From: a virus
Lineage: Duplodnaviria > Heunggongvirae > Uroviricota > Caudoviricetes
DNA: 34,465 bases
Strand: one strand, 5' to 3'
IMG/VR virus record: IMGVR_UViG_2869924733_000010
A model generated the notes under the pieces. That model saw only the letters and a program-made list of their open reading frames with translations, was not told the origin of the DNA and did not search any database. Shown here one piece after another: positions 3,099-29,940 of the stretch; position 1 is the first letter of the stretch; each line of letters opens with the position of its first letter. The translations under genes were made by a program, and so were the position numbers.

Positions 3099-3577
3099 TA
3101 TCCCGCCCCCGTCATACCCGTGAATTTAGTCGCCATACTGCCAGCCTTACCGATGAGCGATTCCGCCTGTTTACCGATATCGCCATAAAGCGCGGCCAGT
3201 GACTCATCAACGCGGGTGAGCGACAGCGTAAAATCAATTTTCCGGGGTGTGCCGTCTGCAAAGAAAATACTCCCTGTTTCACTCACCTTGCTGATGACAT
3301 ACATGTCGTAAATCATGCCGGTGCCATCCAGCAACGGCCACGCCCGGCCTTCCTCTGCCATCAGTCTGAGCGTGGTCATCGTCAGCTTTCCGCCAGTCAG
3401 TTCGGGATAAAGCACACCGGCAAGTGTGATGTTCTCCTCACCTACACCGAGAAACTGATAGGCATCCCGTTTACCGATACGGGAATTTGACGGCCAGCGA
3501 TAATCTGATTCACGCTGCATGGTCTGATGTGGCAGCGTCTGGCGCATAAAAACAAACATACCTAACGCGAGCATCAT
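3098..3577 (-). CDS. U: P2 gpU tail protein
   Basis: 159 aa, matches P2 gpU. Confidence 0.85.
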   Translation of the reverse strand: MMLALGMFVFMRQTLPHQTMQRESDYRWPSNSRIGKRDAYQFLGVGEENITLAGVLYPELTGGKLTMTTLRLMAEEGRAWPLLDGTGMIYDMYVISKVSETGSIFFADGTPRKIDFTLSLTRVDESLAALYGDIGKQAESLIGKAGSMATKFTGMTGAG

Positions 3578-3591
3578 TTTTCGTCACCTCC

Positions 3592-6038
3592 TTAACCGTC
3601 ATGCATCATGCTGGCACGGGCGCGCGCTCGTTTATCCCGCTCGTATTTTTCGAGCGCATCCTGTAACTGGCGGTCAAGCTGTGTCCCCGGCGCAGTACCA
3701 CCGGTCAGGCTGATGTGATATTCGTTTTTACTCTGGTCCACATAAGAGCGGCCAGCCGGTGCCGTGACCGGCTGATAAGCCTGATAGCCTGCATAAGAGC
3801 TGGTCGCCGGAATATAACCACCGGTGCCATACGTGGCGGCATGAGTTCTGGCGGCGGTCTGGTCAAGTGTGTCTGACTCTTTGTTGATGACGCCGAGTTT
3901 TTCCAGTACCCAGTCAATACCGCTGCGCAGTTTGTTGAACGCATTAAGCGGCAGCATCAGCGCGTCAGCCAGTGCCTGCCCGAACATGACGCCCGTGTCA
4001 CGGCAACGGTTCAGGGTGTCCTGGGTGGCTTTGACCGGTGCAATCAGGTTTTTAAACCACTGCCACGCGGCCTGTAACTTTTCACCCAGCCAGTCAAACA
4101 CCGGCTTAAGTGGCGTGAACAGTTCCCCCACCGGCGCAAATGCCGCTTTCAGCCCTTCAACCACACCGCCGAAGAATACGCTGACAGGCTCCCAGTATTT
4201 ACGGATAAGCAACGCCCCGGCGACAATGGCGGCCACCACGGCCACAACCGGCCAGCTAATCGCCCCGATGGCCGTCATAACAGCACTGCCAACCGTCGTG
4301 AAGATTGCCCCCATTGCGCCTGCTGCCGCGATAATGGCATTGATGCCGGTGATAACCGGCCAGGCTACAAGACCAATGGCACCGATGATGCCAGTCAGCA
4401 CCAGTGCGCCACCGGCAATGAGGCCGATAGTTGACGCCAGTGATTTGTTTTTCTGTATCCAGCCGTCGAGTTTTAACACATACTTTGTGGCCGTCTGCGT
4501 GAGCTTACGCAGCGCGCCTTCCTGCTGGTCAAACAGGTCAGTCCCTACCGCCTCATAAGCGGACTGAAACTCCTTAAAGTCACCGCCGAGGTTGTCCTGC
4601 ATGATATTTACCAGCTCCGCGGTCTTCCCGTCTGAGGCTTTAAACGCAGCGGTCAGTTTGTCCAGCCTTCCGGTTGAGGCGGCAGTCATCAGCACAGCAG
4701 CGGCTGAGCTGGCCTCCTCCCCGAAAATGGTTTTCATGTATTCAGCCTGCTGGGCAGTACCGAGCCGGTTTTTATCAAAACTGGCCTGCATTTCTTTCAG
4801 AATGGTAAATACTGGCCGGGTGTTTCCCTTGCTGTCTGAGGTTTTCACACCAAGCTCTTTCAGTGCATCCCATGCTTTTCCCGTCGGTGCCTGCAGGCGG
4901 CTTAACACGGCACGGCTTCCCGTCCCCGCCATTGAACCGGTAATTTTTGCATCATGCAGTGCCCCGACCATTGCGGCGGTTTCTTCAATGCTGACACCGG
5001 CATTTTTTGCCACAGGTGCGGCATAGGTCAGCGCATCGCTCATGCCGTCAAAATCGGCGGCGGTTTTGTTCATCGTCATGGAGAGAACATCCCCGATATG
5101 AGCAACCTTATCGTTTGAAAGCTGAAAGGCGGATTTCATCCCCATCAGCAGGGCGGCGTTTTCTTCCATCGTGCGGCGGTTCGCCAGCGCCATATTCAGC
5201 GTGACCGGCGTTGCCGCCTGAATGGCATCAACATCTCCACCCGCTTTCGCAATGATAATCTGCGCACCGGCCGCATCATCCGCTGAGGCGGCGGTATTGT
5301 CACCGAGCTGGCGCGCCTGCTTGCGTAGCGCGGCCATTTCGGCGGAGTCTTTTGCCACTCCTAGCACGGCCTGCAATTCTGAGTTTTTCTGCGCAAACTC
5401 ATAACCGGGCATCAGCAACTTAACTCCGGCCATCGTTCCCGCCGCCGCAATCCCCACACCGGCAGCGCCTACTGAGGCCATATTTCCGGCCAGTTCCTTT
5501 CCGGCCTGATAACGCTGTTTTACTGCGTTAAGTTTTGCCTGTTGCGCACTGACACGCGCCAGCGCGTCGCGCTGACGGTTAAGTTGTGCGGTGGTTTCAC
5601 TGATACGGTTTTTCAGTCCCTGCTCATCATGTGCAAGATTGCGGGTATTAATTCCCACAGCGGCCAGTTCCCGCTGCTGGCGTTTAACGGAATCCGTCAG
5701 GCGGTTATATTTCGCCTGTAAGTCCTCCGCCGCACGCTTTGCGGATTCCAGCACTTTCGCCTGAGCACGGGTGGGACGTTCGGTGTTTTTAAACTGTGTG
5801 GCAAGGGCTTCGGCCTCCTGCCGTGCCTTTTCAAGTGCATGACCAGTCACGGCGAGCTGTGCACTGGTCTTGCGAAATCCCTCAATACGGGATGCGTGAC
5901 CGTTCAGCTCGCGCAGTGATTTTTGTGTTTCCCGGATATCCCCGACAGCGACTTGCTCGCTGTGCGGATGGATTTAAACGGGCGGGATGCCTGGTCAACA
6001 GCCCTGAGCAATACCTGTAATTTTACATTGTTACTCAT
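3592..6038 (-). pseudogene. T: Tail tape measure gpT with a 1-nt frameshift near the 5' end (or sequencing error)
   Basis: ATG at 6038 encodes MSNNVKLQVLLRAVDQASRPFKSIRTASKSLSG then leaves frame at a C4 run (5940..5943, plus strand); the 752 aa ORF 3592..5850 continues in another frame. Span is 2447 nt, one short of 2448 for an 815 aa protein. Confidence 0.7.
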
Positions 6039-8235: not shown

Positions 8236-8327
8236 CCGTTTAACTCCGTGGTTAATGGGTGCAACTATTTTCTGTTGTGCAGAGCATGAGACGCTATTTG
8301 ACCTGGCTGGTCAGGGGATGAAACAAC

Positions 8328-8357
8328 AGATAAAGAAAATGCGGGCAATTCGCCCGC
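8328..8357 (-). terminator. Intrinsic terminator between the hotspot and the FI promoter region
   Basis: Hairpin gcgggcgaattgcccgc followed by a T-rich tract on the minus strand. Confidence 0.55.
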
Positions 8358-8427
8358 CTGTCCTGATTTGTACTCACTCATTTTCCGCCTGACAATTTAC
8401 ATAGCCCAAATGCTATCAAATCTGACA

Positions 8428-8458
8428 GTCTGCTTTGAGCGAGGAGCGGACATTGAGC
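8428..8458 (+). repeat. Copy Z of a ~30 bp conserved motif (core TGA-N11-ACA)
   Basis: gtctgctttgagcgaggagcggacattgagc resembles the minus-strand copies at 14100..14135 and 18095..18130. Confidence 0.5.
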
Positions 8459-8531
8459 TTGGTCTCAAGTATGCTGATTTTTTTTAGCTAATATCTTGGT
8501 TTTTTGATCAATAGGTTGCTGGTCAGACCTA

Positions 8532-9684
8532 AATAGCTGCGCGGAATAGTAGATCATTTTGAGGGAACTTAGCCCGGATTGTGCGATCTGATCAATCGCC
8601 AAATCAAAACAAATCACCAACCGGACTGAGCAATGCCGATCATAGCACCAATTTCCCGTGACGAACGACGCCTGATGCAGAAAGCCATCCATAAAACACA
8701 CGATAAAAATTATGCCCGCAGACTGACTGCCATGCTGATGCTGCACCGGGGCGACCGTGTCAGCGACGTTGCCAGAACGCTCTGCTGCGCCCGTTCCTCT
8801 GTTGGACGCTGGATTAACTGGTTCACGCAGTCGGGTGTTGAGGGACTGAAATCATTACCTGCCGGGCGTGCCCGTCGCTGGCCGTTTGAGCATATCTGCA
8901 CACTGTTACGTGAGCTGGTAAAACATTCTCCCGGCGACTTTGGCTACCAGCGTTCACGCTGGAGTACAGAACTGCTGGCAATAAAAATCAATGAGATAAC
9001 CGGTTGCCAGTTAAATGCCGGAACCGTTCGCCGCTGGTTGCCGTCTGCGGGGATTGTGTGGCGAAGGGCTGCGCCAACTCTGCGTATCCGTGACCCGCAT
9101 AAAGATGAAAAGATGGCAGCAATCCATAAAGCACTGGACGAATGCAGCGCAGAGCATCCGGTCTTTTATGAAGATGAAGTGGATATCCATCTTCATCCCA
9201 AAATCGGTGCGGACTGGCAACTGCGCGGACAGCAAAAACGGGTGGTCACGCCGGGACAGAATGAAAAATATTATCTGGCCGGAGCGCTGCACAGCGGGAC
9301 AGGTAAAGTCAGCTATGTGGGCGGCAACAGCAAAAGTTCGGCGCTGTTCATCAGCCTGCTGAAGCGGCTTAAAGCGACATACCGTCGGGCGAAAACCATC
9401 ACGCTGATCGTGGACAACTACATTATCCACAAAAGCCGGGAAACACAGAGCTGGCTGAAGGAGAACCCGAAGTTCAGGGTCATTTATCAGCCGGTTTACT
9501 CGCCATGGGTGAATCATGTTGAACGGCTATGGCAGGCACTTCACGACACAATAACGCGTAATCATCAGTGCCGCTCAATGTGGCAACTGTTGAAAAAAGT
9601 TCGCCATTTTATGGAAACCGTCAGCCCATTCCCCGGAGGCAAACATGGACTGGCAAAAGTGTAGCGGTATTAAGCGCAGCTATT
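8532..9684 (+). mobile_element. IS630, complete (1153 bp), TA target duplication in a CTAG context
   Basis: Terminal inverted repeats aatagctgcgc / gcgcagctatt; TA at 8530..8531 and 9685..9686; reconstructed target gaccTAggat. Confidence 0.85.
8633..9664 (+). CDS. IS630 transposase (DDE, Tc1/IS630 family)
   Basis: 343 aa ORF recognised as IS630-family transposase. Confidence 0.85.
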   Translation: MPIIAPISRDERRLMQKAIHKTHDKNYARRLTAMLMLHRGDRVSDVARTLCCARSSVGRWINWFTQSGVEGLKSLPAGRARRWPFEHICTLLRELVKHSPGDFGYQRSRWSTELLAIKINEITGCQLNAGTVRRWLPSAGIVWRRAAPTLRIRDPHKDEKMAAIHKALDECSAEHPVFYEDEVDIHLHPKIGADWQLRGQQKRVVTPGQNEKYYLAGALHSGTGKVSYVGGNSKSSALFISLLKRLKATYRRAKTITLIVDNYIIHKSRETQSWLKENPKFRVIYQPVYSPWVNHVERLWQALHDTITRNHQCRSMWQLLKKVRHFMETVSPFPGGKHGLAKV

Positions 9685-9755
9685 TAGGATCAGATATAAA
9701 AAGTATGATTTTATTCTCCCCACATAGATGAAAAAAACAAAGAAGCATAACTTTT

Positions 9756-10332
9756 ATGACCAAGACAAATAGGCACAACTTTCCTCCAAGCGTTGTAGGT
9801 AAGGTAGCAGAGCGCGCTACATATATTTGTAGCAATCCCTCTTGTCATAGGGTAACAATCGGCCCGGATCAATTGGCGGAAAATCTTTCTATCAAGACGG
9901 GTGAGGCGGCGCATATCTGCGCGGCGAGCCCTGGCGGACCGCGCTATGACATGTCTCAGTCAGAAACAGAGCGGAAGAGCATAAAAAATGCTATATGGTT
10001 GTGCGGAGCTTGTGCTGATTTAGTTGATAAGAATGGCGGTATGGGCTACCCCGCCGAGTATTTGCGAAAATGGAAACGTGACCACGAATCACTAATGAAG
10101 GAGTGCTTGGAGGGAGGAAAGAGGCTAATGTTTCAATTTCTATCGCATCGCCCAGACGAGAAAATTGCTCTGCGGTTGATCCATTTATTGGAAGACAAGA
10201 GTTCTCTTTATCTGCCATATGCTCAAGAGGATCCAGCACGAGTCTCGGATTCTTTGAAGGAGCTCCGACTCTCTCTTACGGCGATTCGCTCCGAGATTGC
10301 ACCTGAGTCTCCGCTATCGTTGATCGTCGAGT
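9756..10332 (+). pseudogene. 5' part (codons 1..192) of an HNH-like zinc-finger protein gene, interrupted by IS911
   Basis: CSNPSCH ... AAHICAASPGGPRYD ... NAIWLCGACADLVDKN matches the HNH pattern CxxC..H..N..CxxC with the last His replaced by Ala; the ORF tail after residue 192 is IS911 sequence. Confidence 0.6.
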
Positions 10333-10667
10333 TGAAGTGGCACACTGAATTTGGCCACCTGAACAGAGGTGATATGCTCACCTCAGAACAACACAGGTGC
10401 TCCAATGAAAAAAAGAAATTTTAGCGCAGAGTTTAAACGCGAATCCGCTCAACTGGTTGTTGACCAGAAATACACGGTGGCAGATGCCGCCAAAGCTATG
10501 GATGTTGGCCTTTCCACAATGACAAGATGGGTCAAACAACTGCGTGATGAGCGTCAGGGCAAAACACCAAAAGCCTCTCCGATAACACCAGAACAAATCG
10601 AAATACGTAAGCTGAGGAAAAAGCTACAACGCATTGAAATGGAGAATGAAATATTAAAAAAGGCTAC

Positions 10668-12796
<2,129 letters not shown>

Positions 12797-12804
12797 CCAC
12801 TTCA

Positions 12805-12983
12805 AGTCAATTGTCCGTGCGTGCCGACACTATATGAATTCAACGCCAGATCGGCCGGGCATTGAGGAGCTTAACTTCTCCCTCGGCGCAGTTCGTAAGG
12901 TAGTAGGAATTAACATCGGAGAACTATTGAAACACTATGAAATCCAGGTGAGTCACGAATTGCATTCTATTATTCCTAAATGA
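12805..12983 (+). pseudogene. 3' part of the IS911-interrupted HNH-like gene
   Basis: Removing IS911 and one AGT copy joins ...IVE to SIVRACRHYMNSTPDRPGIEELNF...IIPK in frame, giving a ~250 aa protein. Confidence 0.6.
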
Positions 12984-13144
12984 ATTTTAACCAATAACTC
13001 AAGTTGGCGAAGCCTGAAAAAGATGAGCTTCGCCATTTTTCTCGGACCTTGAGTAATTAGTGCAGACACAATAAGCATATTGTTTTCGAGTGCACGACGA
13101 ACGTAGTTTTCGATACTTTGAGTATTATAGCTTCAACTTTTTAC

Positions 13145-13930
13145 TTACATCAAAAATAACTTACAATATTTGTAAGTTGCTTTGTGTACGAAAATGCTTG
13201 CGTCAACTCTTGACATCGGATTTTTTAATATCCCTCCGGAACTTCCCTTTCCATGTCTCGCAAGATACCCTAACAGTTCAAAGCTATTAGCAGTGCCCGT
13301 GAATCTGCTGATTTCCTTTTCATCAATATTAAAAGCCATGCTAATTACTTTATCTCTCTGATATTTCTTGCCTTTATAAGCGTCGGGGAAATTTAGTATA
13401 CCTTTCACATATTTATCATATACATATTCTCTAATTGTTTCCCACAAACGATAAAGATTAACCCAATCATAACCTAAGGCACACATACCTAAAACAACAC
13501 GTAAGGATTCATGTTTAGATGATAAATTAATTAATCGTGAAAAATTATCAGCGCGAGGGTGTGGTTGCTGTATGTCATGGAAATTAAAGGGGTTTACCTG
13601 AGTTACATCCATTGATTTAAAGCCGCATATTTCCGAGTAATTAATGCCTTCACTTCCAGAAATAGAAAGAGGACCAAAAGATTGATATCTTTCAAAACCA
13701 TAAAGAACGCTAAGTGCGCCGTTCATGAGCATCAACAAACCTTTTAACTTGGAAGCCAATTCATTTGGGTCGGATATGATATTCAAATGAGGAGATGAAA
13801 GTAAATGAATATCTGTTTGCCCTAAATCAGAGTCAGAATCATCATTTATAGAGAAATCATTCGACCAAACTCCACATAATCCTTTAACAAATCCTGTAGA
13901 TGGAGTAAGTAAAAAACTATAATCGTACAT
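13145..13930 (-). CDS. Hypothetical protein, 261 aa, AT-rich orphan cargo gene
   Basis: Long ORF in low-GC DNA convergent with the HNH-like gene; no family recognised. Confidence 0.6.
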   Translation of the reverse strand: MYDYSFLLTPSTGFVKGLCGVWSNDFSINDDSDSDLGQTDIHLLSSPHLNIISDPNELASKLKGLLMLMNGALSVLYGFERYQSFGPLSISGSEGINYSEICGFKSMDVTQVNPFNFHDIQQPHPRADNFSRLINLSSKHESLRVVLGMCALGYDWVNLYRLWETIREYVYDKYVKGILNFPDAYKGKKYQRDKVISMAFNIDEKEISRFTGTANSFELLGYLARHGKGSSGGILKNPMSRVDASIFVHKATYKYCKLFLM

Positions 13931-14099
13931 AACTCAAATCCCTCTTTTTTATATCCTAAATGGAATACAAAAATTATTGTTTATTTGTTATGTTCAATAT
14001 ACTCACATAACCGAAAACTTTAACACGCTCATTCTAAGTGAACTAAATCTAAAGATATACCTTTGAAAACTGAAAACTCAATGCTGGCAACGTCCGCTC

Positions 14100-14135
14100 C
14101 TGGCACAAAGCGAACATTCCTTGACGTCCTGTCAG
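14100..14135 (-). repeat. Copy X of the ~30 bp conserved motif (core TGT-N11-ACG), ~190 nt upstream of the 261 aa ORF
   Basis: 28 of 35 positions identical to the copy at 18095..18130. Confidence 0.55.
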
Positions 14136-14200
14136 GGAAACCCACCTGGACGTTCAGGTGATTCTGTCGATTATAGTCATAAAAAAGCCGCCCCGGAGGG

Positions 14201-15501
14201 CTGAGGAATTCCCAGAAAACGAGACAGACATAGCATTATGTGATCTACTGATTTGTGCCAACAATTCAATGAGATCACTGCTATGCCTGTTCATAAAGTA
14301 TGTCAGAATTTCTTCCGGGATGCCTTAGCACCATTTCATCAGTACCGACAAAATGCCCTGATGGATGCCACAGTGGCGTTAATCAACGGAGCATCTCTGA
14401 CGCTGACCAGTATCGGACGTTTTTTCCCGGGTAATGCACAAGTTAAGAATAAGAGCAAACGTATTGATCGCCTCATGGGTAATGAGGCGCTCCATCGCGA
14501 TATTCCAATGATTTTCAGGAATATCACTTCAATGCTGACACGGCAGTTATCTTTATGTGTAATAGCCGTAGACTGGAGTGGCTATCCCTCCCAGGAGCAT
14601 CATGTTCTTCGTGCCAGCCTTCTGTGTGACGGGCGTTCCATTCCGTTATTGAGTAAGGTTGTTCCTTCTGAAAAACAAAATAATCCATTGATACAACATG
14701 ATTTCCTTGATTCCCTTGCTCAATCCCTGCCCCCCGATGCCAGGGTTATTATTGTCACGGATGCTGGATTTCAGAGCGCATGGTTTCACCATATTACTTC
14801 TCTGGGCTGGGATTTTATTGGTCGGATCAGAAATAACGTTCAGTATTGCCTCGATAACGCGCCTGAAAGATGGTTAAAAGTGTCGGATAGCCCTGAATGT
14901 AAAACACCGGAATATATGGGGGCTGGAAGGCTGGTTAAAGAAAGGAAAAAAAGCATCCGGGGGCATTTTTACACCTATAAGAAATCGGCAAAAGGGCGAA
15001 AAAAGAAACGTTCGAAAGGTCAGAGTGGTTTAAACAAAACAGACAAAGAACAGAGCAAATCAGCAAAAGAAGCCTGGTTGATCTTCAGCAGTACAAATGA
15101 CTTCAGAGCGCGAGAAATCATCAAGTTATACAGTCGGCGAATGCAGATAGAGCAAAACTTTCGTGATGAAAAGAACGGGCGCTTCGGATTTGGTCTTCGG
15201 GCCAGCAAAAGTCGTTCAACAGGAAGAATTCTGGTTCTGAGTCTGCTGGCAACGTTGAGCACTATCGTAATGTGGTTACTCGGTTATCACGCTGAAAATA
15301 AAGGGTTACACCTGAAATATCAGGCTAACAGCATTAAATCCCGGCGGGTTATCTCATATCTGACGTTAGCGAAGAATGTTCTTCGACACTCGCCACTTAT
15401 TTTAAGACGAACAGTACTGAGCACAGTTCTAAACCATCTGTCCAGAACCTACCGAAATATGGTGCTGGTTTATTAGCAGTAATTTTGTGGGGATCCCTCA
15501 G
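14201..15501 (+). mobile_element. IS10-like element (IS4 family), 9 bp duplication CCCGGAGGG
   Basis: Ends CTGAGGAATTCCCA / CTGAGGGATCCCCA (inverted); duplication at 14192..14200 and 15502..15510. Confidence 0.8.
14253..15476 (+). CDS. IS10-like transposase
   Basis: 407 aa; KRIDRLMGN, VTDAGFQSAWF and YSRRMQIEQNFRDEK align with IS10 transposase. Confidence 0.8.
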   Translation: MCQQFNEITAMPVHKVCQNFFRDALAPFHQYRQNALMDATVALINGASLTLTSIGRFFPGNAQVKNKSKRIDRLMGNEALHRDIPMIFRNITSMLTRQLSLCVIAVDWSGYPSQEHHVLRASLLCDGRSIPLLSKVVPSEKQNNPLIQHDFLDSLAQSLPPDARVIIVTDAGFQSAWFHHITSLGWDFIGRIRNNVQYCLDNAPERWLKVSDSPECKTPEYMGAGRLVKERKKSIRGHFYTYKKSAKGRKKKRSKGQSGLNKTDKEQSKSAKEAWLIFSSTNDFRAREIIKLYSRRMQIEQNFRDEKNGRFGFGLRASKSRSTGRILVLSLLATLSTIVMWLLGYHAENKGLHLKYQANSIKSRRVISYLTLAKNVLRHSPLILRRTVLSTVLNHLSRTYRNMVLVY

Positions 15502-15659
15502 CCCGGAGGGACGGCTATAAACTCGCCAGTTAACAAGCTGATTTTACCGCTTACGCGGTTCTGTCGTTGCGGTGTTCGCTGACCCACTGCGCCTTTACAG
15601 TTTATCGCTTATGAATCCATGAGCCTTAAATGTCCTGACAAAATCCTCATAGCGCGCAA

Positions 15660-16277
15660 TCATCCCCCCGATGTTTCACGCACATTTTGCTGATGAAAGC
15701 GGAAGTTTGCCTCCGATTCAACACTCTTACTCTTCCAGTCATGGGGAAGGCTTAGCATCACTGGCTTTCTGTTCGGGTAATCAACACTCATAAATGGTAG
15801 CGTACTATCTACGTATGCGGTCATAGCGTCCAAAAAAGCGTCTTTCGCACCATTCACTTCAGTATTGAATAACCGATACTTTTCACCGCTAAATTTTTCA
15901 GCTTTTTCAATGTTTAAGCAAACATCTTGCCGTATACCGCTCAGGTAGCTCTGCTCAACCCATTGAGTAGTATCCTCATAAGGCAGCAATTCAAGGATCT
16001 GGTCGATTATCTTCAGATCATGTTCATCTTGCTTTTTTTTTACAGGGTCCTCAGTAGATTCATTGGATGTGTGGTAAACGTTGGTGGTCTGATTAATATC
16101 CCGCCCGGCCTGGTTCACATCACCCTCGGTTTTCTTTGCCTTCTGTTTTATGTTGTTTTGCTGTCTGATTCTATATGTAACACCGCCCCCAATACCAAAC
16201 AGTGCCAGTACGCCGACTAATAAGCTAAGATAGGTAGCTGCGTCTGCACCAAAATGTGCATTAAGCCATTCAGTCAT
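15660..16277 (-). CDS. Hypothetical membrane-anchored protein, 205 aa (N-terminal TM helix), cargo gene
   Basis: Hydrophobic segment YLSLLVGVLALFGIGGGV then a polar ~170 aa domain; stop codon sits directly on a G6 run, so the 3' end is uncertain. Confidence 0.55.
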   Translation of the reverse strand: MTEWLNAHFGADAATYLSLLVGVLALFGIGGGVTYRIRQQNNIKQKAKKTEGDVNQAGRDINQTTNVYHTSNESTEDPVKKKQDEHDLKIIDQILELLPYEDTTQWVEQSYLSGIRQDVCLNIEKAEKFSGEKYRLFNTEVNGAKDAFLDAMTAYVDSTLPFMSVDYPNRKPVMLSLPHDWKSKSVESEANFRFHQQNVRETSGG

Positions 16278-16363
16278 TTGAACTATGTCCTTACAGTGTG
16301 AGTAAGGATTATAATAACAGAGCTAACTTGCGCAGAAACGAAAAAAGGCAGGTGGATTTGCCC

Positions 16364-17269
16364 CTATATTTCCAGACATCTGTTATCACTTAACCCATTA
16401 CAAGCCCGCTGCCGCAGATATTCCCGTGGCGAGCGATAACCCAGCGCACTATGCGGATGCCATTCGTTATAATGCTCGAACGCCTCTGCAAGGTTCTTTG
16501 CTGCCGTTAACCCGTCTGGTTTGGGCATGATACTGATGTAGTCACGCTTTATCGTTTTCACGAAGCTCTCTGCTATTCCGTTACTCTCCGGACTCCGCAC
16601 CGCCGTGTTCTTCGGTTCAAGTCCCAACATCCGGGCGAACTGGCGTGTTTCATTAGCCCGGTAGCATGAACCATTATCCGTCAGCCACTCCACTGGAGAC
16701 GACGGAAGATCGTTGCCGAAGCGGCGTTCCACCGCTCCCAGCATGACGTCCTGTACTGTTTCACTGTTGAAGCCGCCGGTAGTCACCGCCCAGTGCAGTG
16801 CCTCACGATCACAGCAGTCCAGCGCGAACGTGACACGCAGTCTCTCTCCGTTATCACAGCAGAACTCGAACCCGTCAGAGCACCATCGCTGATTGCTTTC
16901 TTTCACGGCCACTCTGCCTGTATGTGCCCGTTTCGATGGCGGTACAGCAGGTTTTCGCTCAAGCAACAGCGCATTCTGGCGCATGATCCGGTAAACACGT
17001 TTGGCATTGTTCGCAGGCATACCATCAAGTTCTGCCTGTCTGCGAAGCAGCGCCCATACCCGACGATAACCATACGTGGGCAGCTCTCCGATAACATGGT
17101 GTATACGGAGAAGCACATCCGTATCATCAGTGTGACGACTGCGGCGGCCATCCATCCAGTCATCGGTTCGTCTGAGAATGACGTGCAACTGCGCACGCGA
17201 CACCCGGAGACAACGGCTGACTAAGCTTACTCCCCATCCCCGGGCAATAAGGGCGCGTGCGCTATCCAC
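16364..17269 (-). CDS. insD: IS2 transposase InsD
   Basis: 301 aa, recognised as IS2 InsD. Confidence 0.9.
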
Positions 17270-17592
17270 TTTTTTGCCCGTCCATATTCAACGGCTTCTT
17301 TGAGGAGTTCATTTTCCATCGTTTTCTTGCCGAGCAGGCGCTGGAGTTCTTTAATCTGCTTCATGGCGGCAGCAAGTTCAGAGGCAGGAACAACCTGTTC
17401 TCCGGCGGCCACAGCAGTAAGACTTCCTTCCTGGTATTGCTTACGCCAGAGAAATAACTGGCTGGCTGCTACACCATGTTGCCGGGCAACGAGGGAGACC
17501 GTCATCCCCGGTTCAAAGCTCTGCTGAACAATTGCGATCTTTTCCTGTGTGGTACGCCGTCTGCGTTTCTCCGGCCCTAAGACATCAATCAT
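17227..17592 (-). CDS. insC: IS2 InsC
   Basis: 121 aa from internal Met [13 protein letters not shown]. Confidence 0.85.
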
Positions 17593-18094
17593 CTGTACTC
17601 CAATGACTAGTCTAAAAACTAGTATTAAGACTATCACTTATTTAAGTGATACTGGTTGTCTGGAGATTCAGGGGGCCAGTCTAGCAGGGGAGGTAACCCC
17701 CCTGCCTTTAATCAAGTTCCTCCATCCCTTACGGGCGTCCGGTCAGTTGCTTGATGACAACCAGACCAGCTAGCATTATTTGCATCACCAGTAAGACTGT
17801 TGTTAGCGTTATCACTTCGACGTCTCCTCTTCCAGGAGAGCGCCACACGTAGTAAGTGCTTTTGGTTCTACCCGCCCCCCTCACTCCGCATACCATTAGT
17901 TAGCAGGTACAAGCAGCACTCTTTCGTGTGGTAAGCAAACAGGACAGCACTGGACTGACGCCTTGAGCTTTAATATTTCCTTCCGATCCATACAACTAGG
18001 TCTGTTAAAAGCCCCTAGGACGAATTCTACAGAGATGGCTATGGTGCAGGTTTCGGCTATAGGGCTCTTTGATGTAATCGAGGGTCATAACGTT

Positions 18095-18130
18095 GGCAAT
18101 GTCTGCTCCTGGCACAGAGCGGACTATCAG
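18095..18130 (-). repeat. Copy Y of the ~30 bp conserved motif (core TGT-N11-ACA), just downstream of the G stop
   Basis: ggcaatgtctgctcctggcacagagcggac; overlaps a 9 bp stem hairpin ggcacagag..ctctgtgcc. Confidence 0.55.
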
Positions 18131-22256: not shown

Positions 22257-22604
22257 TCAACTCACAGGGATGGTTAACGAAAGTGGCTGGCCGGTGTCGT
22301 TGTGCTGGCCGGTTAACGTGACCGTCATTCGCCCATCAAAGCTGCGCGCCGTGGTGACGGATGACAGGGTGACGCGGGGTTCCCATTTCAGCACCGCCAT
22401 GTAACAGGCGACCTTAATCTGCAACTCAAGCGCCGGGGTCTGCGGCTGGTCAATCATTGACGCCAGCAACGAGCCGTAATCACGACGCATCACCCGTGAG
22501 CCGACCGGTGTGCGCAGGATATCGCCGATACTCTGGCTGATATGCTCAAGGTCAGTGACCGTCAGGCCATCACTGCGATTCATTCCAAGATAACGCGCTG
22601 TCAT
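22257..22604 (-). CDS. W: P2 gpW baseplate protein
   Basis: 115 aa. Confidence 0.85.
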   Translation of the reverse strand: MTARYLGMNRSDGLTVTDLEHISQSIGDILRTPVGSRVMRRDYGSLLASMIDQPQTPALELQIKVACYMAVLKWEPRVTLSSVTTARSFDGRMTVTLTGQHNDTGQPLSLTIPVS

Positions 22605-23230
22605 AGAGGACTCCCGGTTGTGCCGCCGCTGTCGCCGGGGTGTTTATGGGTATGCAGTACCTTACCGTTTGATGAGAGTTCACCGCCGGTATGTTTAATG
22701 TTGCCGCGCATCGTCCCGCCCTTCTGCACTTCCAGCGTGCCGGTAATCAGTCTGTTGGTGCAGACCACCTCCGGGGTGTCCAGGGTGATGCGGGTTGACG
22801 CTTTCACCATGACCACCGGCACCGTGGCAGTAACAGAATCAGAAGCCGTCACGCTGGCCGTTTTAATTCCGCTTACCGTGAGTGCACTGGTTTCGGGTTC
22901 ATACTCAATCACCGCCCCGTCAGGGAAACGGATATGCAGGGCATCCGCCGACGCAGACGGCGCGGGGTTATCGCAGGAATAAATCCCCGGCAGAACGAAC
23001 GCCGTGTCGAGTTCACCGCCCACGGCCAGAATCAGCACCTGTTCCCCCACGGAAGGTGCCCACCATGTGCGCGAACGTCCGGCGCGATGGGTCAGCCACT
23101 GAAGCCAGTCGGTGCACATGCCGCCGGTCTGCACACGGCAGCGACCGGCATTAAGGTCGGTTTCGACAATAATGCCAGTGCGAATCATATTGCGTATAAA
23201 GCGAAGAATTTCATTGTATTGTGCATTCAT
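22601..23230 (-). CDS. V: P2 gpV baseplate spike
   Basis: 209 aa from internal Met MNAQYNEILRFIRNMIRTGIIVETD; ORF track start at 23308 is too long. Confidence 0.8.
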   Translation of the reverse strand: MNAQYNEILRFIRNMIRTGIIVETDLNAGRCRVQTGGMCTDWLQWLTHRAGRSRTWWAPSVGEQVLILAVGGELDTAFVLPGIYSCDNPAPSASADALHIRFPDGAVIEYEPETSALTVSGIKTASVTASDSVTATVPVVMVKASTRITLDTPEVVCTNRLITGTLEVQKGGTMRGNIKHTGGELSSNGKVLHTHKHPGDSGGTTGSPL

Positions 23231-23316
23231 TCGATAATAATGATTCTGTACAATCTCGAAGTAAATCACACCACGATTTCTGGTGCACAGAACAACAAGG
23301 GACAACAAAATCCATT

Positions 23317-23883
23317 ATGAGTACTTACTTTTTCTCGTCAGAAACAATGAAAGAATTGTTCAAAGATTATCTGGTCTTTTTGAACACGCTGACTCCCGGC
23401 ACAAACTTTGAATCAAACAGAAACAAAATAATTGCTCAAGCAATAAACTTCATTTCCGAAAACCCTGAAGATTGGGACAAAAAATCCCAGCACAACATTG
23501 CTATGATTGGCGACACCTTTAAAAGTTTCTTAAGAAAAAAGGGAGAAGATAACAACAGCATCAACCTTATATTCACTTGCTTTTTTAGCTTTATCATTGA
23601 ACCAAGCATTCTCTCTCCGGAAATAGAGTCTCACTTTTCACCACTAAGAACCATCAAGGATTTTGCTCTGTATAACTATAATGAATTCGATGAGCGGAGC
23701 AGAGCACAGATAGACTTTTCTCTTAGAGAACTGCCATTAGCAATGGTTAAAGAAGTTTTAAGCTCCAGCAATGTTGACACATATAAAAAATACATTGATA
23801 GTTTAAACGAAGGGCGTCAATTTTTCGAAAAGTGCGACTCCTTCTTAAAGGAGCAACATGCCAAAATAGAGTCAATCAAATAG
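23317..23883 (+). CDS. Hypothetical soluble protein, 189 aa; first gene of the S-V insert
   Basis: ATG at 23317 (MSTYFFSSETMKELFK...) in low-GC DNA, divergent from V; no family recognised. Confidence 0.6.
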   Translation: MSTYFFSSETMKELFKDYLVFLNTLTPGTNFESNRNKIIAQAINFISENPEDWDKKSQHNIAMIGDTFKSFLRKKGEDNNSINLIFTCFFSFIIEPSILSPEIESHFSPLRTIKDFALYNYNEFDERSRAQIDFSLRELPLAMVKEVLSSSNVDTYKKYIDSLNEGRQFFEKCDSFLKEQHAKIESIK

Positions 23884-23969
23884 TCATTAAAAGGGTATGA
23901 GGTCGCATTTAATTTTGTTGGATTGTTTGAAGGCTTTAATTCACTTGGCAAAAAAAAGAAAGTGCAATC

Positions 23970-24389
23970 ATGCTATCAAGAATAATTCTTATCATCTTGG
24001 CTATAATCATTCCCTCCCAGCTGATATACTATGGAATGCATAAATTACCAGCTCTCGAAACGACAAATGCTGCCACATATTTTATGTCAGCACTACCTTT
24101 TGCATCAGTTACATTGATTTTCATGTATTACTTTAGAGTTGTACTGCTAAATCATATATCGTTACGAACTCAGATTATGCAAATAGAACTCAGAAAGAGC
24201 CTTTGTCAGTTCATTCAGAGTTATAGCGACTATTCCTCAGAGATAAGGAAAAACAATCCGGAAGCGCTTTCAAAATTCGAAGACGTAGTATTTTCAAACA
24301 TCATGCTATCCGATGATAAGATACCATCTACATTTGATGGCATTGAGCAAATAGCATCGTTAATCAATTCATTAAAAAATGGAAAGTAA
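23970..24389 (+). CDS. Hypothetical small membrane protein, 139 aa, two N-terminal TM helices; second gene of the S-V insert
   Basis: Hydrophobic segments IILIILAIIIPSQLIYY and ATYFMSALPFASVTLIFMYYF; followed by a terminator. Confidence 0.6.
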   Translation: MLSRIILIILAIIIPSQLIYYGMHKLPALETTNAATYFMSALPFASVTLIFMYYFRVVLLNHISLRTQIMQIELRKSLCQFIQSYSDYSSEIRKNNPEALSKFEDVVFSNIMLSDDKIPSTFDGIEQIASLINSLKNGK

Positions 24390-24393
24390 TGAT

Positions 24394-24420
24394 AAAAGGC
24401 CAATAACTGGCCTTTTATTT
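24394..24420. terminator. Palindromic bidirectional terminator between the insert and S
   Basis: aaaaggccaataactggcctttt with T-runs on both strands. Confidence 0.6.
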
Positions 24421-24491
24421 ATTAACATGAAAATTCAAAATAAATTATGCTAATCAATTGATTTCTATCTTATATTCTCAGATGATTAAAG

Positions 24492-24944
24492 CTAACGATT
24501 CAGGTGAGCCAGGATAATCTCTTCAATCATCTGCACATCCTCACCGGTAAAGCCGAGCAGAGGACGCGCCGGATAATCAATTTTCTTACCGTCTTTCCGG
24601 TTTTCTTCCGACAGACCGAACTGATGCACACTGGCGATTTTCGGTGACTTCCCGCCGTAAAACTCCATTGATGCCTGTTCCGGGCTGGCGCGGATATGCA
24701 AAAAACGACTGGTGATAAGTTTCGCAAACATTTTTCGCTTAACGCGACCGGTCTTTTTTCTGGCGCTCTGCTGCTGACGTGGCGCGTAGGGTGTGCCGTC
24801 CGGGGCTTTCTGTGCCATCACCCGACGCTGCTGACTCTGACGCAGACGTTTCGCCAGTTCGGCGCTCAGTCGCCGACGCCCTGACGGTGACAGCGATTCA
24901 GTCAGTCCGGCCAGCCGGTCTTCAAAACGCTTAAACTCATTCAT
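24492..24944 (-). CDS. S: P2 gpS tail completion protein
   Basis: 150 aa. Confidence 0.85.
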   Translation of the reverse strand: MNEFKRFEDRLAGLTESLSPSGRRRLSAELAKRLRQSQQRRVMAQKAPDGTPYAPRQQQSARKKTGRVKRKMFAKLITSRFLHIRASPEQASMEFYGGKSPKIASVHQFGLSEENRKDGKKIDYPARPLLGFTGEDVQMIEEIILAHLNR

Positions 24945-26862: not shown

Positions 26863-27143
26863 TACGGTTTCCCCCTGCCCTTAAAGCGGCGCTGAATGGC
26901 AATCTCAATCACCTGATAACCGGCGATACCCAGCATGGAGCCAATGCCGCACACCGCAGGCAGTGACAGGTCAGGAAACTGCACCAGAACAACACCGGCA
27001 ACCATCGAGACAAAACCACCGAGCAACATGCGCCCGATAAACAGACGCGGGGTGATGGGTTCACCACCGGCAAGCACCTTGCCGACAACAATCAGCACCC
27101 CAATCATGAAAAGCGACAGAACGCTTTTTTCTTCTGCTGTCAT
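26862..27143 (-). CDS. Y: P2 gpY holin
   Basis: 93 aa, membrane protein. Confidence 0.85.
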   Translation of the reverse strand: MTAEEKSVLSLFMIGVLIVVGKVLAGGEPITPRLFIGRMLLGGFVSMVAGVVLVQFPDLSLPAVCGIGSMLGIAGYQVIEIAIQRRFKGRGKP

Positions 27144-27146
27144 GCG

Positions 27147-27440
27147 TTACTCCCACAGATTGACAGTTTCAGCCACGGGCGCGGTCTGAACGTCGGGCAG
27201 TTCGACGGCGGTGCCGTGCGGCAGCACGCCATTCACCCACGGCAACCAGAACGGCAGCAGTTCGCGTTTTTTCGCGGCCTTCAGCTCTTTTGAATAAATT
27301 GCTTTCAGTGTGCGCTGGTCTACGGCGAGCTTAACCAGCATCTGCTCATAGACAGTTGCATGTCGCAGCGGGGCTGCTTCCCGCTGCGCGGTCATCGCTG
27401 CCGAGACCCGCATCATGTGGCGCTGTGCGGGACTCGTCAT
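27147..27440 (-). pseudogene. M'-'X deletion fusion: first ~73 codons of terminase small subunit M joined to the last ~24 codons of tail protein X; gene L absent
   Basis: N-terminus MTSPAQRHMMRVSAAMTAQ... is gpM; C-terminus ...PHGTAVELPDVQTAPVAETVNLWE is the gpX end; junction near 27221; the ORF sits between N and Y where M, L and X belong. Confidence 0.7.
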
Positions 27441-27443
27441 CGG

Positions 27444-28515
27444 TTACGCTCCCGGCTCTGCGGTCGCTTTAGCCGGTGTGGAGAAATCACCGACCTTAAT
27501 TTTCTCCACCAGACAACCGGCTGCATAGTCTTCCACCACGTAATCAATGTTCATTGACTCGTAGTTCTCCACGCGGTCGAGTTTCGGGTTTTCCACAATC
27601 ACGCGGCGATGGCTGTCATCCATGTAGTAGATGGACAGGTTTTCCAGCTTCGTGATGAGCATCGCATCCGCCGGGAAGTACGGGACGCGTACCGCCGGCA
27701 GGTTACCGATGCGTTTCTGGCTGATGATGACATCAGCGGCCAGCATTTCGCTGTTGTCCTGCTCTTTGTTGACGATGGGGAAATACTTGTCCGCCAGTAG
27801 CTGACGTCCCACAATCACCACAAGGTCAGGGTCTTCCTGATACCACGGTTCAATCAGGTTGTTGGTCGCATCCATCACCAGTGCATCAAGGCTGGCATAA
27901 TCGCCGCCCTTACCCACGCGGATAACCTCAGAGGTGGTGCGCCCTTCCTCGTCAGTGACCTTGCTCATCACGCGCGCCGGGGCTTCATTGCGGTATTTCT
28001 GCAACCAGCCGACCGCCACATCCTGCAACATCGGATTGCTGCTGCGGTCAGAAGTTTCGGCACGCTTCACGCCGTTAAAACCGGCCATGATGAAATCAAG
28101 GGACTGGCGTTTGATAATGGCGTTACGGACACGGAGCTGGAAATCCTGATAACGCGCCCACAGGTCAAGCGTTTTGTAGCGGATATAAAAATCGAAGTTA
28201 ATCTGGTCGCATTCGTACTTGTTAGACGCCAGCTTCGAGAAGTCCTTCGGCTGACGCTCAGTGCCACCGGCGGTGTCGGTGGTGCTGGCGATGGAGCCGG
28301 TGACACCGATGCCAATTTTTTCCCCTTTCATTTCGCTGACCGGCACAATGTTGATGCGGGTCAGAAAGTCAGAGGACTCCTGCATGGTGTTCATCAGGGT
28401 CTGGGTGACCGACGGTTCAACGGTGAATTTTTTCGACACATCACCGGCGTCGATGCCGTTCAGTTCGGCAACACGGGACAGGTAGGCATTAAATTTAAAG
28501 CGGGTTTCCTGGCGC
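27444..28515 (-). pseudogene. N: Major capsid gene N, 3' portion, cut off from its start codon by IS4
   Basis: Matches P2 gpN from codon 2 on; ATG plus codons 2..5 sit at 29941..29955 on the far side of IS4; in-frame TAG at the junction. Confidence 0.85.
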
Positions 28516-29940
28516 TAATGCCAGTCAGTTAAGCAACTGACTGGCTCTTTTTCGGGGCTGTGGGGTATTTCCAGGGCCTCTCCTTTACCACTCTCGGGAA
28601 GGCCCTTTCCCTTCTCGTCGGTAATTTCACAAGTTGTCCCATACTTGCAAGATCGCGCATCAGCTCCGGTATACGTCCCGGTGAAGCGCCCTGCAATGTC
28701 ATCAGCATTCTCATCACCATTCCGCATGATTCTGAGAAACTCAGTTGATTCGGCCAGTAACCTTTCAGATGTTCCGCCATTTTAATCATCTGATATCTCA
28801 CCAGATTATAAGCCAGTAAGACACCCCACAGCTCTTGCTCCACAAGCTCCGGCTTTTTACTTCTCAGCGTCAGCCTGCTCAGTTGCATCGTCTGTTTTAT
28901 CTCCCTGTATCCCAGTTCGATTTCCCAGCGATGACTGTACAGATCCGCCATTTCTCCTCCGGGGAAGCGCATGGCGTCCGTCATCGACGTCAGCAGATGG
29001 CAGACTTTTCCTTTGCGCGTCACGGTCAGCAGGCGGGCTGTCACTTCATTTCCCAGTCCCGGCCACTTTTTTCGTGCCTGCGAGCTGGTTTTCAGCTTCA
29101 CCAGATGATCGCCTTTACCCAGTTTTCTGAACTCTTCATATTGCGCTCCCTTTCTGAGAGGTATCATCCAGTGGCGGTGTTCTCCCGCCAGGCTCCAGGC
29201 ATTTAACAGTCCCAGTGAGTAATAACCTTTATCCATTAACGTCAGAGTGTTATCGCCGGTTTGTTCTATAAGTTGCTCAGCAAGCTCATTTTCGCTGTTC
29301 TTCATCGTGCCGAAGGCTGCAGCCGTCAGCAGATGGCTGGTCAGTTCCATCTGGCAGACCATTTTGACCTGCGGGTAGAGCGCCGGGTTCCCGGCATGTG
29401 TCTGGCGGGGGAAGGCTGCATCGTTCTCTGGTGTATCCGGTGTGCGCCAGAACACACCATCGATGGCCAGCAGGGTCAGGCCGCACCAGTGCGGATGCGG
29501 CGTGGCGTTATGCCAGAGCTGCGCTGTTTTCGTGAACACGCGGCGGACAGCCTCACTTCCCAGGCGCTGGCGGGCCTGAATAACGGCACTGGGGGCAACG
29601 AAGGGGCGATTGCCCGGCAGCATGATGTCCAGGCGATTCACAATCTGGTGAAGAGGTTCTTTACGCTCAAGCGCCATGCCAACAATACACCAGACCATCA
29701 TTTCGAGGGGAAGACGGCGCTTGCGTAGCGTTACAGTACCTGATTCGGCAAGGCAACGAGAGATGAGTTCGGGGTCGAGGTAATCCCCCAGAGAAGTCAG
29801 TGGGTTACGCAGAGAATCGTAACGGGATACCAGATCAAGAGCCTGTCCAATGTGCATAAAAAATCCGGAAACAAGTGAGCGTTTCCGGATTCTTACACAG
29901 CCACTGGATCGGTCAACTGATCCTTAACTGATCGGCATTA
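28516..29940 (-). mobile_element. IS4 with a 13 bp duplication GGTTTCCTGGCGC
   Basis: Ends taatgcc... / ...ggcatta; duplication at 28503..28515 and 29941..29953; boundaries accurate to about 1 bp. Confidence 0.85.
28529..29857 (-). CDS. IS4 transposase
   Basis: 442 aa, recognised as IS4 transposase. Confidence 0.9.

Follow-up and report, generated by a model that had tools for sequence, protein, structure and literature searches.

The AT-rich block that separates the tail genes V and S in a P2-like prophage has been misread as a two-gene module; the real cargo is one pseudogenised membrane-protein gene, residing in a Shigella-type P2 prophage. The window analysed here is a stretch of 34,465 nucleotides (IMG/VR record IMGVR_UViG_2869924733_000010), and the two open reading frames of the block, ORF1 and ORF2, are the N-terminal and the C-terminal fragment of a single gene of 357 codons, which has been cut by a premature stop and a shift in frame. 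Taken together, the block very probably represents a single accessory gene in the orf30 slot, which is a pseudogene here and dead in this window.

The AT-rich cargo between V and S

The block corresponds exactly to the intergenic region from the start of V to the stop of S (23231..24491; 1,261 nt) and has a GC content of 34.3%, compared to 57.9% across the phage genes of the flanking 4 kb. Both ORFs are located on the plus strand and thus opposite to V and S, which are both encoded on the minus strand. Two hydrophobic helices are present at the N-terminus of ORF2 and none in ORF1 (Kyte-Doolittle, 19-residue window, threshold 1.6). The AT-rich 1.26-kb block, its two opposite-strand ORFs, the two transmembrane helices of ORF2 and the palindrome had all been described in a sequence-only reading of this DNA, and all of them are real. 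The features of the region are as follows:

22601..23230, minus strand: V (gpV, baseplate spike), left boundary of the slot (ORF; RefSeq relatives are named 'phage baseplate assembly protein V')
23171..23230, minus strand: 5' end of V (first ~12 codons), apparently travelling with the cassette (identity drop versus P2)
23231..24491, no strand: AT-rich cargo cassette of a P2-like prophage, in its S-V ('orf30') slot (composition and slot survey)
23231..23316, no strand: 86-nt spacer separating the divergently oriented V and cargo genes (conserved spacing)
23317..24389, plus strand: whole pseudogene, a disrupted 357-codon gene for a predicted two-helix (2-TM) inner-membrane protein of the PHROG 9373 family (99.4% identity to NZ_CP020835)
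23317..23883, plus strand: ORF1, 5' fragment, 188 aa plus stop, covering the all-helical N-terminal domain and a portion of the long helix (PHROG 9373 profile positions 8-197)
23881..23883, plus strand: premature stop TAG at codon 189, caused by G->T at 23881; GAG (Glu) in all intact alleles (base-level alignment)
23950..23957, plus strand: A8 run created by the loss of one G (~23954), AAAAAGAAAG -> AAAAAAAAG, -1 frameshift at codon 213 (base-level alignment)
23970..24389, plus strand: ORF2, 3' fragment, 139 aa plus stop, starting from the internal Met219 (PHROG 9373 positions 250-387)
24392..24418, no strand: palindromic hairpin with a 12-bp stem and a 3-nt loop, separating S from the convergent cargo gene (terminator scan)
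24492..24944, minus strand: S (gpS, tail completion), right boundary of the slot (ORF; RefSeq relatives are named 'phage virion morphogenesis protein')

The hairpin begins 3 nt past the ORF2 stop, ends 73 nt from the S stop and is also kept in intact relatives; it is likely a terminator between the cargo gene and S. On the other side of the block, the promoters of both V and the cargo gene presumably reside within 23231..23316, where a promoter scan detected no strong sigma-70 consensus. The late-promoter dyad TGT-N12-ACA upstream of V was not found in the window, but since P2 itself gave no match either, this pattern is too strict to be informative.

The exchanged DNA does not appear to end at the V start codon. 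The N-terminus of V reads MNAQYNEILRF in the window versus MNTLANIQELARAL in P2 and in phages with an empty site, and the DNA identity to P2 is only 62% over nucleotides 1-60 of V, before it rises to 95-98%. As judged from this alignment, the swapped cassette extends ~12 codons into the 5' end of V.

One gene interrupted by two lesions

Neither ORF had been assigned to a family in the sequence-only reading. This assessment holds for Pfam, NCBIfam and PADLOC, which provided no match, but not for the PHROG collection, where both ORFs match the same family of unknown function, PHROG 9373. On this 388-position profile, ORF1 covers positions 8-197 (E = 1.9e-48) and ORF2 positions 250-387 (E = 1.5e-63). 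The window copy thus displays collinear homology to PHROG 9373 but is not encoded by one continuous reading frame of about 350-400 aa; while the members of PHROG 9373 are single chains, the copy in the window is split and truncated.

A megablast search found the whole block in 60 complete E. coli genomes with 98.9-99.4% identity. These matches are 1,412 nt long versus 1,411 nt for the query, and between V and S they contain only one gene, annotated as 'hypothetical protein'. In NZ_CP020835 and NZ_CP023820, a single CDS is present at the same place (98.9-99.4% DNA identity), and the intact CDS at the equivalent position in NZ_CP020835 (approximately 3105248-3106350) corresponds to WP_000661081.1. 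The RefSeq annotation of 347 aa is 10 codons too short: the family alignment contains an invariant Phe at residue 6 (F6), and because this residue precedes the RefSeq start, the true start is at 23317, which results in a protein of 357 aa. The premature stop is evident from alignment to L001 and L002 and to seven distinct intact alleles. The two genes proposed earlier are therefore one, as both ORFs match PHROG 9373, the relatives contain a single 357-aa ORF, and a TAG codon and a 1-nt deletion account for the split. Likewise, the proposed pairing of a soluble protein with a small membrane protein is produced by the stop codon and the frameshift that interrupt one gene; since the two-protein layout is an artefact of these lesions, its analogy to abortive-infection modules loses its basis.

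Sequencing errors were considered as a source of the lesions and rejected, because the same two lesions are present in independent assemblies. Four independent contigs (L174-L177) and the IMG/VR contig L009 share both of them and differ from the window by only 0-2 additional SNPs. The ORF1 product is identical to WP_039072384.1, which is named from Shigella dysenteriae, and the exact 188-aa product has been recorded in dozens of contigs. The prophage belongs to a Shigella dysenteriae/boydii-type lineage in which the double-lesion allele is fixed.

The intact gene is under purifying selection, as deduced from a pN/pS of 0.16 among the seven distinct intact alleles. Seven changes are private to the window allele: Y59H, E74K, R91S, E189*, the frameshift at codon 213, E217A and P235Q. 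Three of the substitutions (Y59H, E74K and R91S) are located within ORF1 and P235Q within ORF2; R91, which is replaced by serine in the window allele, is nearly invariant across the family. The window copy can be considered non-functional with high confidence, as far as this can be judged from its sequence. Because the gene is broken, a clone of 23231..24491 would most likely be without a phenotype.

It is extremely unlikely that the two ORFs constitute a working module of a soluble 188-aa protein and a 139-aa membrane partner, for which gene fission could be the origin. In favour of such a module, the two ORFs are open, share one strand and have a hairpin behind them, and the broken allele has been retained undeleted in many isolates. 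ORF2 also keeps the conserved membrane module: it contains the intact membrane-helix hairpin and the C-terminal tail, including all of the C-terminal motifs FEDV[IV]FSNI, K[ITL]PSTFDG and [ED]LRK[ST]LCxFI, and its in-frame ATG is located behind a purine-rich stretch, so that some expression of the C-terminal fragment from ORF2 may occur. However, gene callers leave ORF2 uncalled in the sister contigs, every close relative contains a single ORF, and the family representatives are single chains among the matches listed. Two independent lesions would be needed, and 86 nt of former coding sequence between the fragments would be lost. All seven private changes alter the protein, compared to a pN/pS of 0.16 in the intact alleles. 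Splits into two ORFs are also found at four loci from three other species, but these occurred independently and at different positions, yielding fragments of 90+262, 91+259 and 229+134 aa. Nor do the relatives provide any sign of two separately conserved, co-occurring genes, because they are single genes without a conserved neighbour.

Decay of the prophage elsewhere also argues against a working two-gene module and supports the preferred reading of a single pseudogene. After residue 96, gpM breaks off and is joined to the C-terminal end of gpX, while gpL is missing. An IS4 transposase is inserted between the capsid gene N and the scaffold gene O, and the Z/fun slot (roughly 10 kb) contains transposases of the IS630, IS30, IS3 and IS4 families. 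From these IS insertions and the head-gene deletion, the surrounding P2-like prophage is recognised as defective. Such a picture is usual for prophage decay in Shigella.

Occupants of the orf30 slot and distribution of the family

The variable 'orf30 region' between S and V has long been known. It represents one of three sites of horizontally acquired genes in P2-like phages, together with the TO region and the Z region (PMC3091744), and yet another ORF occupies the S-V slot in phage R18C (PMC6823313). In P2 (NC_001895), S and V are separated by Orf30 (NP_046770.1), a nonessential protein of 261 aa that is encoded on the opposite strand; the P2 annotation also lists a putative terminator behind S, at the place equivalent to that of the hairpin, as well as the activator site of the V promoter on the other side. 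The earlier statement that S and V are adjacent in P2 is therefore incorrect for P2 itself, but it describes the majority of the close relatives sampled.

This is evident from the survey of the S-V junction that the sequence-only reading had proposed. Across 80 IMG/VR loci, gpS is 97-100% identical, and the survey covered 79 IMG/VR contigs with a gpS identity of at least 97% to that of the window. Their S-V slots are occupied as follows:

Empty (gap of 66-72 nt): 57 of 79 contigs
Window-type cargo (1,261-1,263 nt): 11 of 79 contigs
Orf30-type cargo (946-952 nt): 9 of 79 contigs
Third type of cargo (1,045 nt): 2 of 79 contigs

Ten of the eleven window-type cargos contain the intact 357-aa ORF, while the eleventh is identical to the window. 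The block was thus correctly recognised as optional prophage cargo: it has been acquired horizontally and shares with other cargo of the orf30 region the location between S and V, the opposite strand, a foreign composition and its absence from some relatives. The start of the cargo ORF is located 87-90 nt from V in both the window-type and the orf30-type cargo. It was also correct that neither ORF is a structural or lysis gene of P2, as they are absent from 68 of the 79 relatives and match no virion or lysis family in Pfam or NCBIfam.

P2 Orf30 and the window cargo resemble each other in several respects. Both are AT-rich, optional or nonessential, and encoded on the opposite strand in the same slot, and both proteins are predicted membrane proteins, with three hydrophobic segments in Orf30. 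In contrast to these similarities, the sizes differ (261 aa for Orf30 versus 357 aa for the window family) and the sequences are unrelated. Homology to P2 Orf30 was considered and rejected, based on an hhalign probability of 0.2%.

Searching a 90%-clustered database retrieved 345 homologues of the intact protein, almost all with a length of 353-358 aa; none of these is named and none contains a Pfam domain. An exhaustive profile search extended the family to 928 representatives at 50% identity, of which 667 matched with E <= 1e-30. Among the matches listed (150 of the 928 representatives), nearly all are 350-400 aa long and matched end to end. Since no chain exceeds 400 aa among these 150 matches, there are no fusions among the listed representatives. 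A literature search by accession number found nothing on the family protein. The family of approximately 930 clusters combines purifying selection, as seen in the intact alleles, with a high AT content, mobility across phyla and recurrent occurrence as a lone opposite-strand gene in P2-like prophages and phage-plasmids.

Several P2-like prophages carry the gene in the V-S slot, with protein identities of 50% in Citrobacter, 37% in Yersinia and 35-40% in Erwinia, Pectobacterium and Rouxiella. The gpS proteins of these phages are only 40-49% identical, which is comparable to the divergence of the cargo protein itself (35-50%). Because the divergence resembles that of the neighbouring gpS, the association of the gene with the V-S slot is old. 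The gene is also found outside this slot: a 388-aa relative, likewise a member of PHROG 9373, is encoded in Klebsiella phage-plasmids as a lone opposite-strand gene between replication genes.

The exact conservation of this slot across P2-like phages with such divergent gpS proteins could indicate that the intact gene serves the lytic cycle of the phage, for example in lysis timing, in holin modulation or as a morphogenesis helper, rather than the lysogen. Its product is a membrane protein encoded between lysis/tail-completion genes and baseplate genes, and the gene is intact in isolated, viable Yersinia Peduoviridae, whose proteins are members of PHROG 9373. Nevertheless, a role in the lytic cycle is improbable, because the slot is empty in most of the close relatives and filled by the unrelated, nonessential Orf30 in P2, because the gene is transcribed against the late operons, and because the great majority of its occurrences at the species level have no P2 genes nearby.

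This last point emerged from a scan of one genome per species, which resulted in 80 loci from Gamma-, Beta-, Epsilon- and Delta-proteobacteria, Nitrospirales and Bacteroidota. P2 prophages account for only 5-6 of these loci; in the ~74 non-phage loci, the gene stands alone. The function can therefore not depend on P2 partners. Clustering the neighbours of the 80 loci revealed no conserved partner gene, and the only recurrent neighbour 'families' are large superfamilies (two-component kinases, ABC transporters, integrases and the like). In all 56 evaluable loci, the gene exceeds its flanks in AT content, with a mean GC content of 34% versus 49%.

Putative function of the intact protein

The intact gene is predicted to encode a 357-aa inner-membrane protein with a helical N-terminal domain, a long helix, a 2-TM hairpin and a conserved tail. 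In the AlphaFold2 model, which was calculated from an alignment of 60 sequences, the protein is all-helical (mean pLDDT 81.9). It consists of a confidently modelled helical N-terminal domain (residues 1-150) and a very long helix (residues 153-231), which runs into the first membrane helix and is followed by the second membrane helix and C-terminal helices. Hydropathy places the membrane helices around residues 219-242 and 256-280 of the 357-aa protein. Clusters of lysine and arginine residues are present before the first and after the second membrane helix, and the N-terminal domain and the C-terminal tail are thus predicted to be cytoplasmic according to the positive-inside rule. Conservation is highest in the C-terminal region (residues 286-357), where the major-residue frequency reaches 0.73 versus 0.44 in the N-terminal domain; this region includes a loop with an invariant P-S-T-F-D-G motif that is modelled with low confidence. 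A profile search against PDB sequences retrieved no solved-structure homologue below E = 0.7, and the fold comparison produced no match to a known fold.

Pfam, NCBIfam and PADLOC searches with ORF1, ORF2 and the full-length protein as queries provided only sub-threshold noise, such as DUF3810 with E = 0.003-0.03. The PADLOC check that had been suggested in the sequence-only reading turned out negative for both ORFs and the intact protein, with no match even at E <= 10 (PADLOC-DB v2.0.0). When 60 diverse relatives were scanned singly, no PADLOC model was matched by more than two of them at E <= 0.1, and no Pfam family was found in more than two members. The intact protein resembles the lactococcal AbiZ and SLATT-type 2-TM proteins, which are single-protein abortive-infection effectors with two membrane helices; the likeness concerns only the layout, i.e. 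a cytoplasmic domain combined with a two-helix membrane hairpin and carriage on mobile elements. The Pfam and PADLOC libraries presumably include SLATT and AbiZ models, none of which matched at the thresholds used.

The gene neighbourhoods outside of P2-like prophages were also inspected. Among 111 immediate neighbours at the non-P2 loci, PADLOC gave scattered hits to mad3 (4), mad8 (4), PDC-S48 (2) and one each of HEC-06, PDC-S35, PDC-S20 and a type I specificity subunit, which are raw counts without a background set. The same neighbours also include integrases and IS200 elements, but are mostly housekeeping genes; putAbiC was found nearby in two loci.

The P2 morons old, tin and fun exclude other phages. 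Like the window block, old, tin, Z/fun and the defence systems of the P2 hotspots are AT-rich optional cargo in a fixed slot, with their own promoter and terminator, as presumed for the window block as well. In contrast to the hotspot systems, which reside in the GpA-GpQ or the Z/fun site, the window cargo is located in the S-V slot and matches no PADLOC v2 model. The published surveys of P2 hotspots (Rousset 2022, Vassallo 2022) concentrate on slots other than S-V; no report on the S-V slot as a defence hotspot was found in the literature, where Rousset 2022, Vassallo 2022, Egorov 2024 and a 2026 NAR survey name other slots.

The preferred explanation is as follows. An accessory ('moron') gene occupies the orf30 slot, transcribed opposite to the late operons and equipped with its own hairpin downstream. 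The intact protein would probably be expressed from the prophage and be located at the inner membrane of the lysogen, where it could exclude other phages either by abortive infection via membrane perturbation or by a block to DNA entry. In the window allele, the GAG->TAG change at codon 189 and the 1-nt deletion at codon 213 have cut this gene into two ORFs, and five further private missense changes are present. We consider it possible, at somewhat below an even chance, that the intact ancestral protein acts alone at the inner membrane in such a putative phage-exclusion function. More tentatively, the intact family may constitute a putative new anti-phage or exclusion system that works on its own and at the membrane.

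Alternatively, the intact gene could encode a mobile membrane protein with a role unrelated to phages, such as in stress, toxin/immunity or addiction, that hitch-hikes in prophages and AT-rich islets. This is unlikely, as nothing points to a specific alternative of this kind and as the repeated stand-alone carriage on the opposite strand by temperate phages and a phage-plasmid follows the pattern of a lysogen-expressed moron. Many lysogen-expressed morons have proved to be anti-phage (PMC9122126, PMC9519451).

The window locus itself is ordinary, a pseudogene in a defective, IS-ridden prophage. It illustrates that pseudogenisation can mimic the layout of a soluble partner combined with a small membrane protein, which is used as a heuristic for defence modules. 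A phage assay of the window copy would probably yield a false negative, and the intact 357-aa allele, which is available for example from E. coli CFSAN051542 or phage vB_YenM_31.17, is the proper object for such a test. The intact family provides a well-defined 2-TM target of fixed architecture, which occurs in temperate phages and, in many phyla, in AT-rich islets. If the putative exclusion function is true, the window copy would represent its dead remnant, and if the intact family defends, the S-V slot would become a third P2 cargo site to mine for defence genes, one that has been largely ignored so far.

Decay and insertions in the window prophage

The head module of the P2-like prophage (27129-29854) is broken. 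Its gpM reading frame stops at residue 96 and is fused into residues 42-67 of gpX, and gpL is missing; the loss of gpL implies a deletion of approx. 1.1-1.3 kb. The prophage cannot be viable. The Z/fun slot, located between the gene for the tail sheath FI and the tail-fibre genes G/H, is swollen to approx. 10 kb (8300-18100). Transposase genes of several families are present in this slot, and a further one separates the capsid gene N from the scaffold gene O.

Transposase genes in the Z/fun slot and the head module
8633..9661, IS630-like transposase, Z/fun slot
10675..11823, IS30 transposase, Z/fun slot
11957..12793, IS3-family transposase, Z/fun slot
14253..15473, IS4-family transposase, Z/fun slot
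16364..17266, IS3-family transposase, Z/fun slot
28529..29854, IS4 transposase, between N and O

Three additional ORFs of the Z/fun slot (9756..10421, 13145..13927 and 15660..16274) had no match in Pfam, and a class I SAM-dependent methyltransferase is named among E. coli matches.

Cargoes of the S-V slot and neighbouring regions

In phage P2, the slot between tail genes V and S is occupied by Orf30 (L003, 1140-1925), which is unrelated in sequence to the cargo family of the window. Orf30 contains three hydrophobic segments (residues 4-31, 106-132 and 219-241) and is predicted to be a membrane protein, as a result of which both of these two different S-V cargoes would be membrane proteins. A third cargo type is found in two IMG/VR records (L062 and L071), where a gap of 1,045 nt contains opposite-strand ORFs of 126 and 66 aa; this type may be degraded, too.

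A P2-like prophage of Yersinia enterocolitica (L007/L008) carries an extra insert between W and V (3532-4832), which comprises two small ORFs and a VapBC-like pair made up of a PIN-domain gene (4195..4599) and, upstream of it, a partner of 77 aa. This insert looks like a further cargo site within the baseplate operon. In Pectobacterium brasiliense (L091, 5275-12051), the cargo-family gene has its customary position beside V, whereas the gene on its far side is an ORF6N-domain gene rather than S, with an Arc-like repressor and then gpA further downstream; this arrangement indicates a rearranged P2-like genome.

Properties and recurrent splitting of the cargo-gene family

For the intact E. coli gene (L001, 1698-2741), the start annotated in RefSeq yields a protein of 347 aa (WP_000661081.1) and probably misses the first 10 codons, since Phe6 of the 357-aa form shows no variation among 60 diverse relatives.

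One family member, in a Proteobacteria MAG (L089/L094, 1-12144), resides in a non-P2 mobile element that carries a D5_N/P4-type primase and two resolvases. A DUF6338 gene is located directly upstream and a putAbiC gene two genes downstream, a layout reminiscent of a defence region in a satellite or island.

Regardless of host GC content, the cargo-family gene is AT-richer than its flanks in 56/56 evaluable loci of the one-genome-per-species scan (L092-L171), with a mean GC of 34% for the gene and 49% for the flanks (Wilcoxon p = 7.5e-11). Constant horizontal transfer is one possible cause of this bias, a requirement for xenogeneic silencing another.

Family members are also broken into two ORFs in Rouxiella (L098, 90+262 aa), Marinomonas (L137, 91+259 aa) and Perlucidibaca (L164/L165, 229+134 and 229+86 aa). 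Since these splits lie at positions that differ from the split in the window, pseudogenisation of the cargo gene is recurrent and independent.
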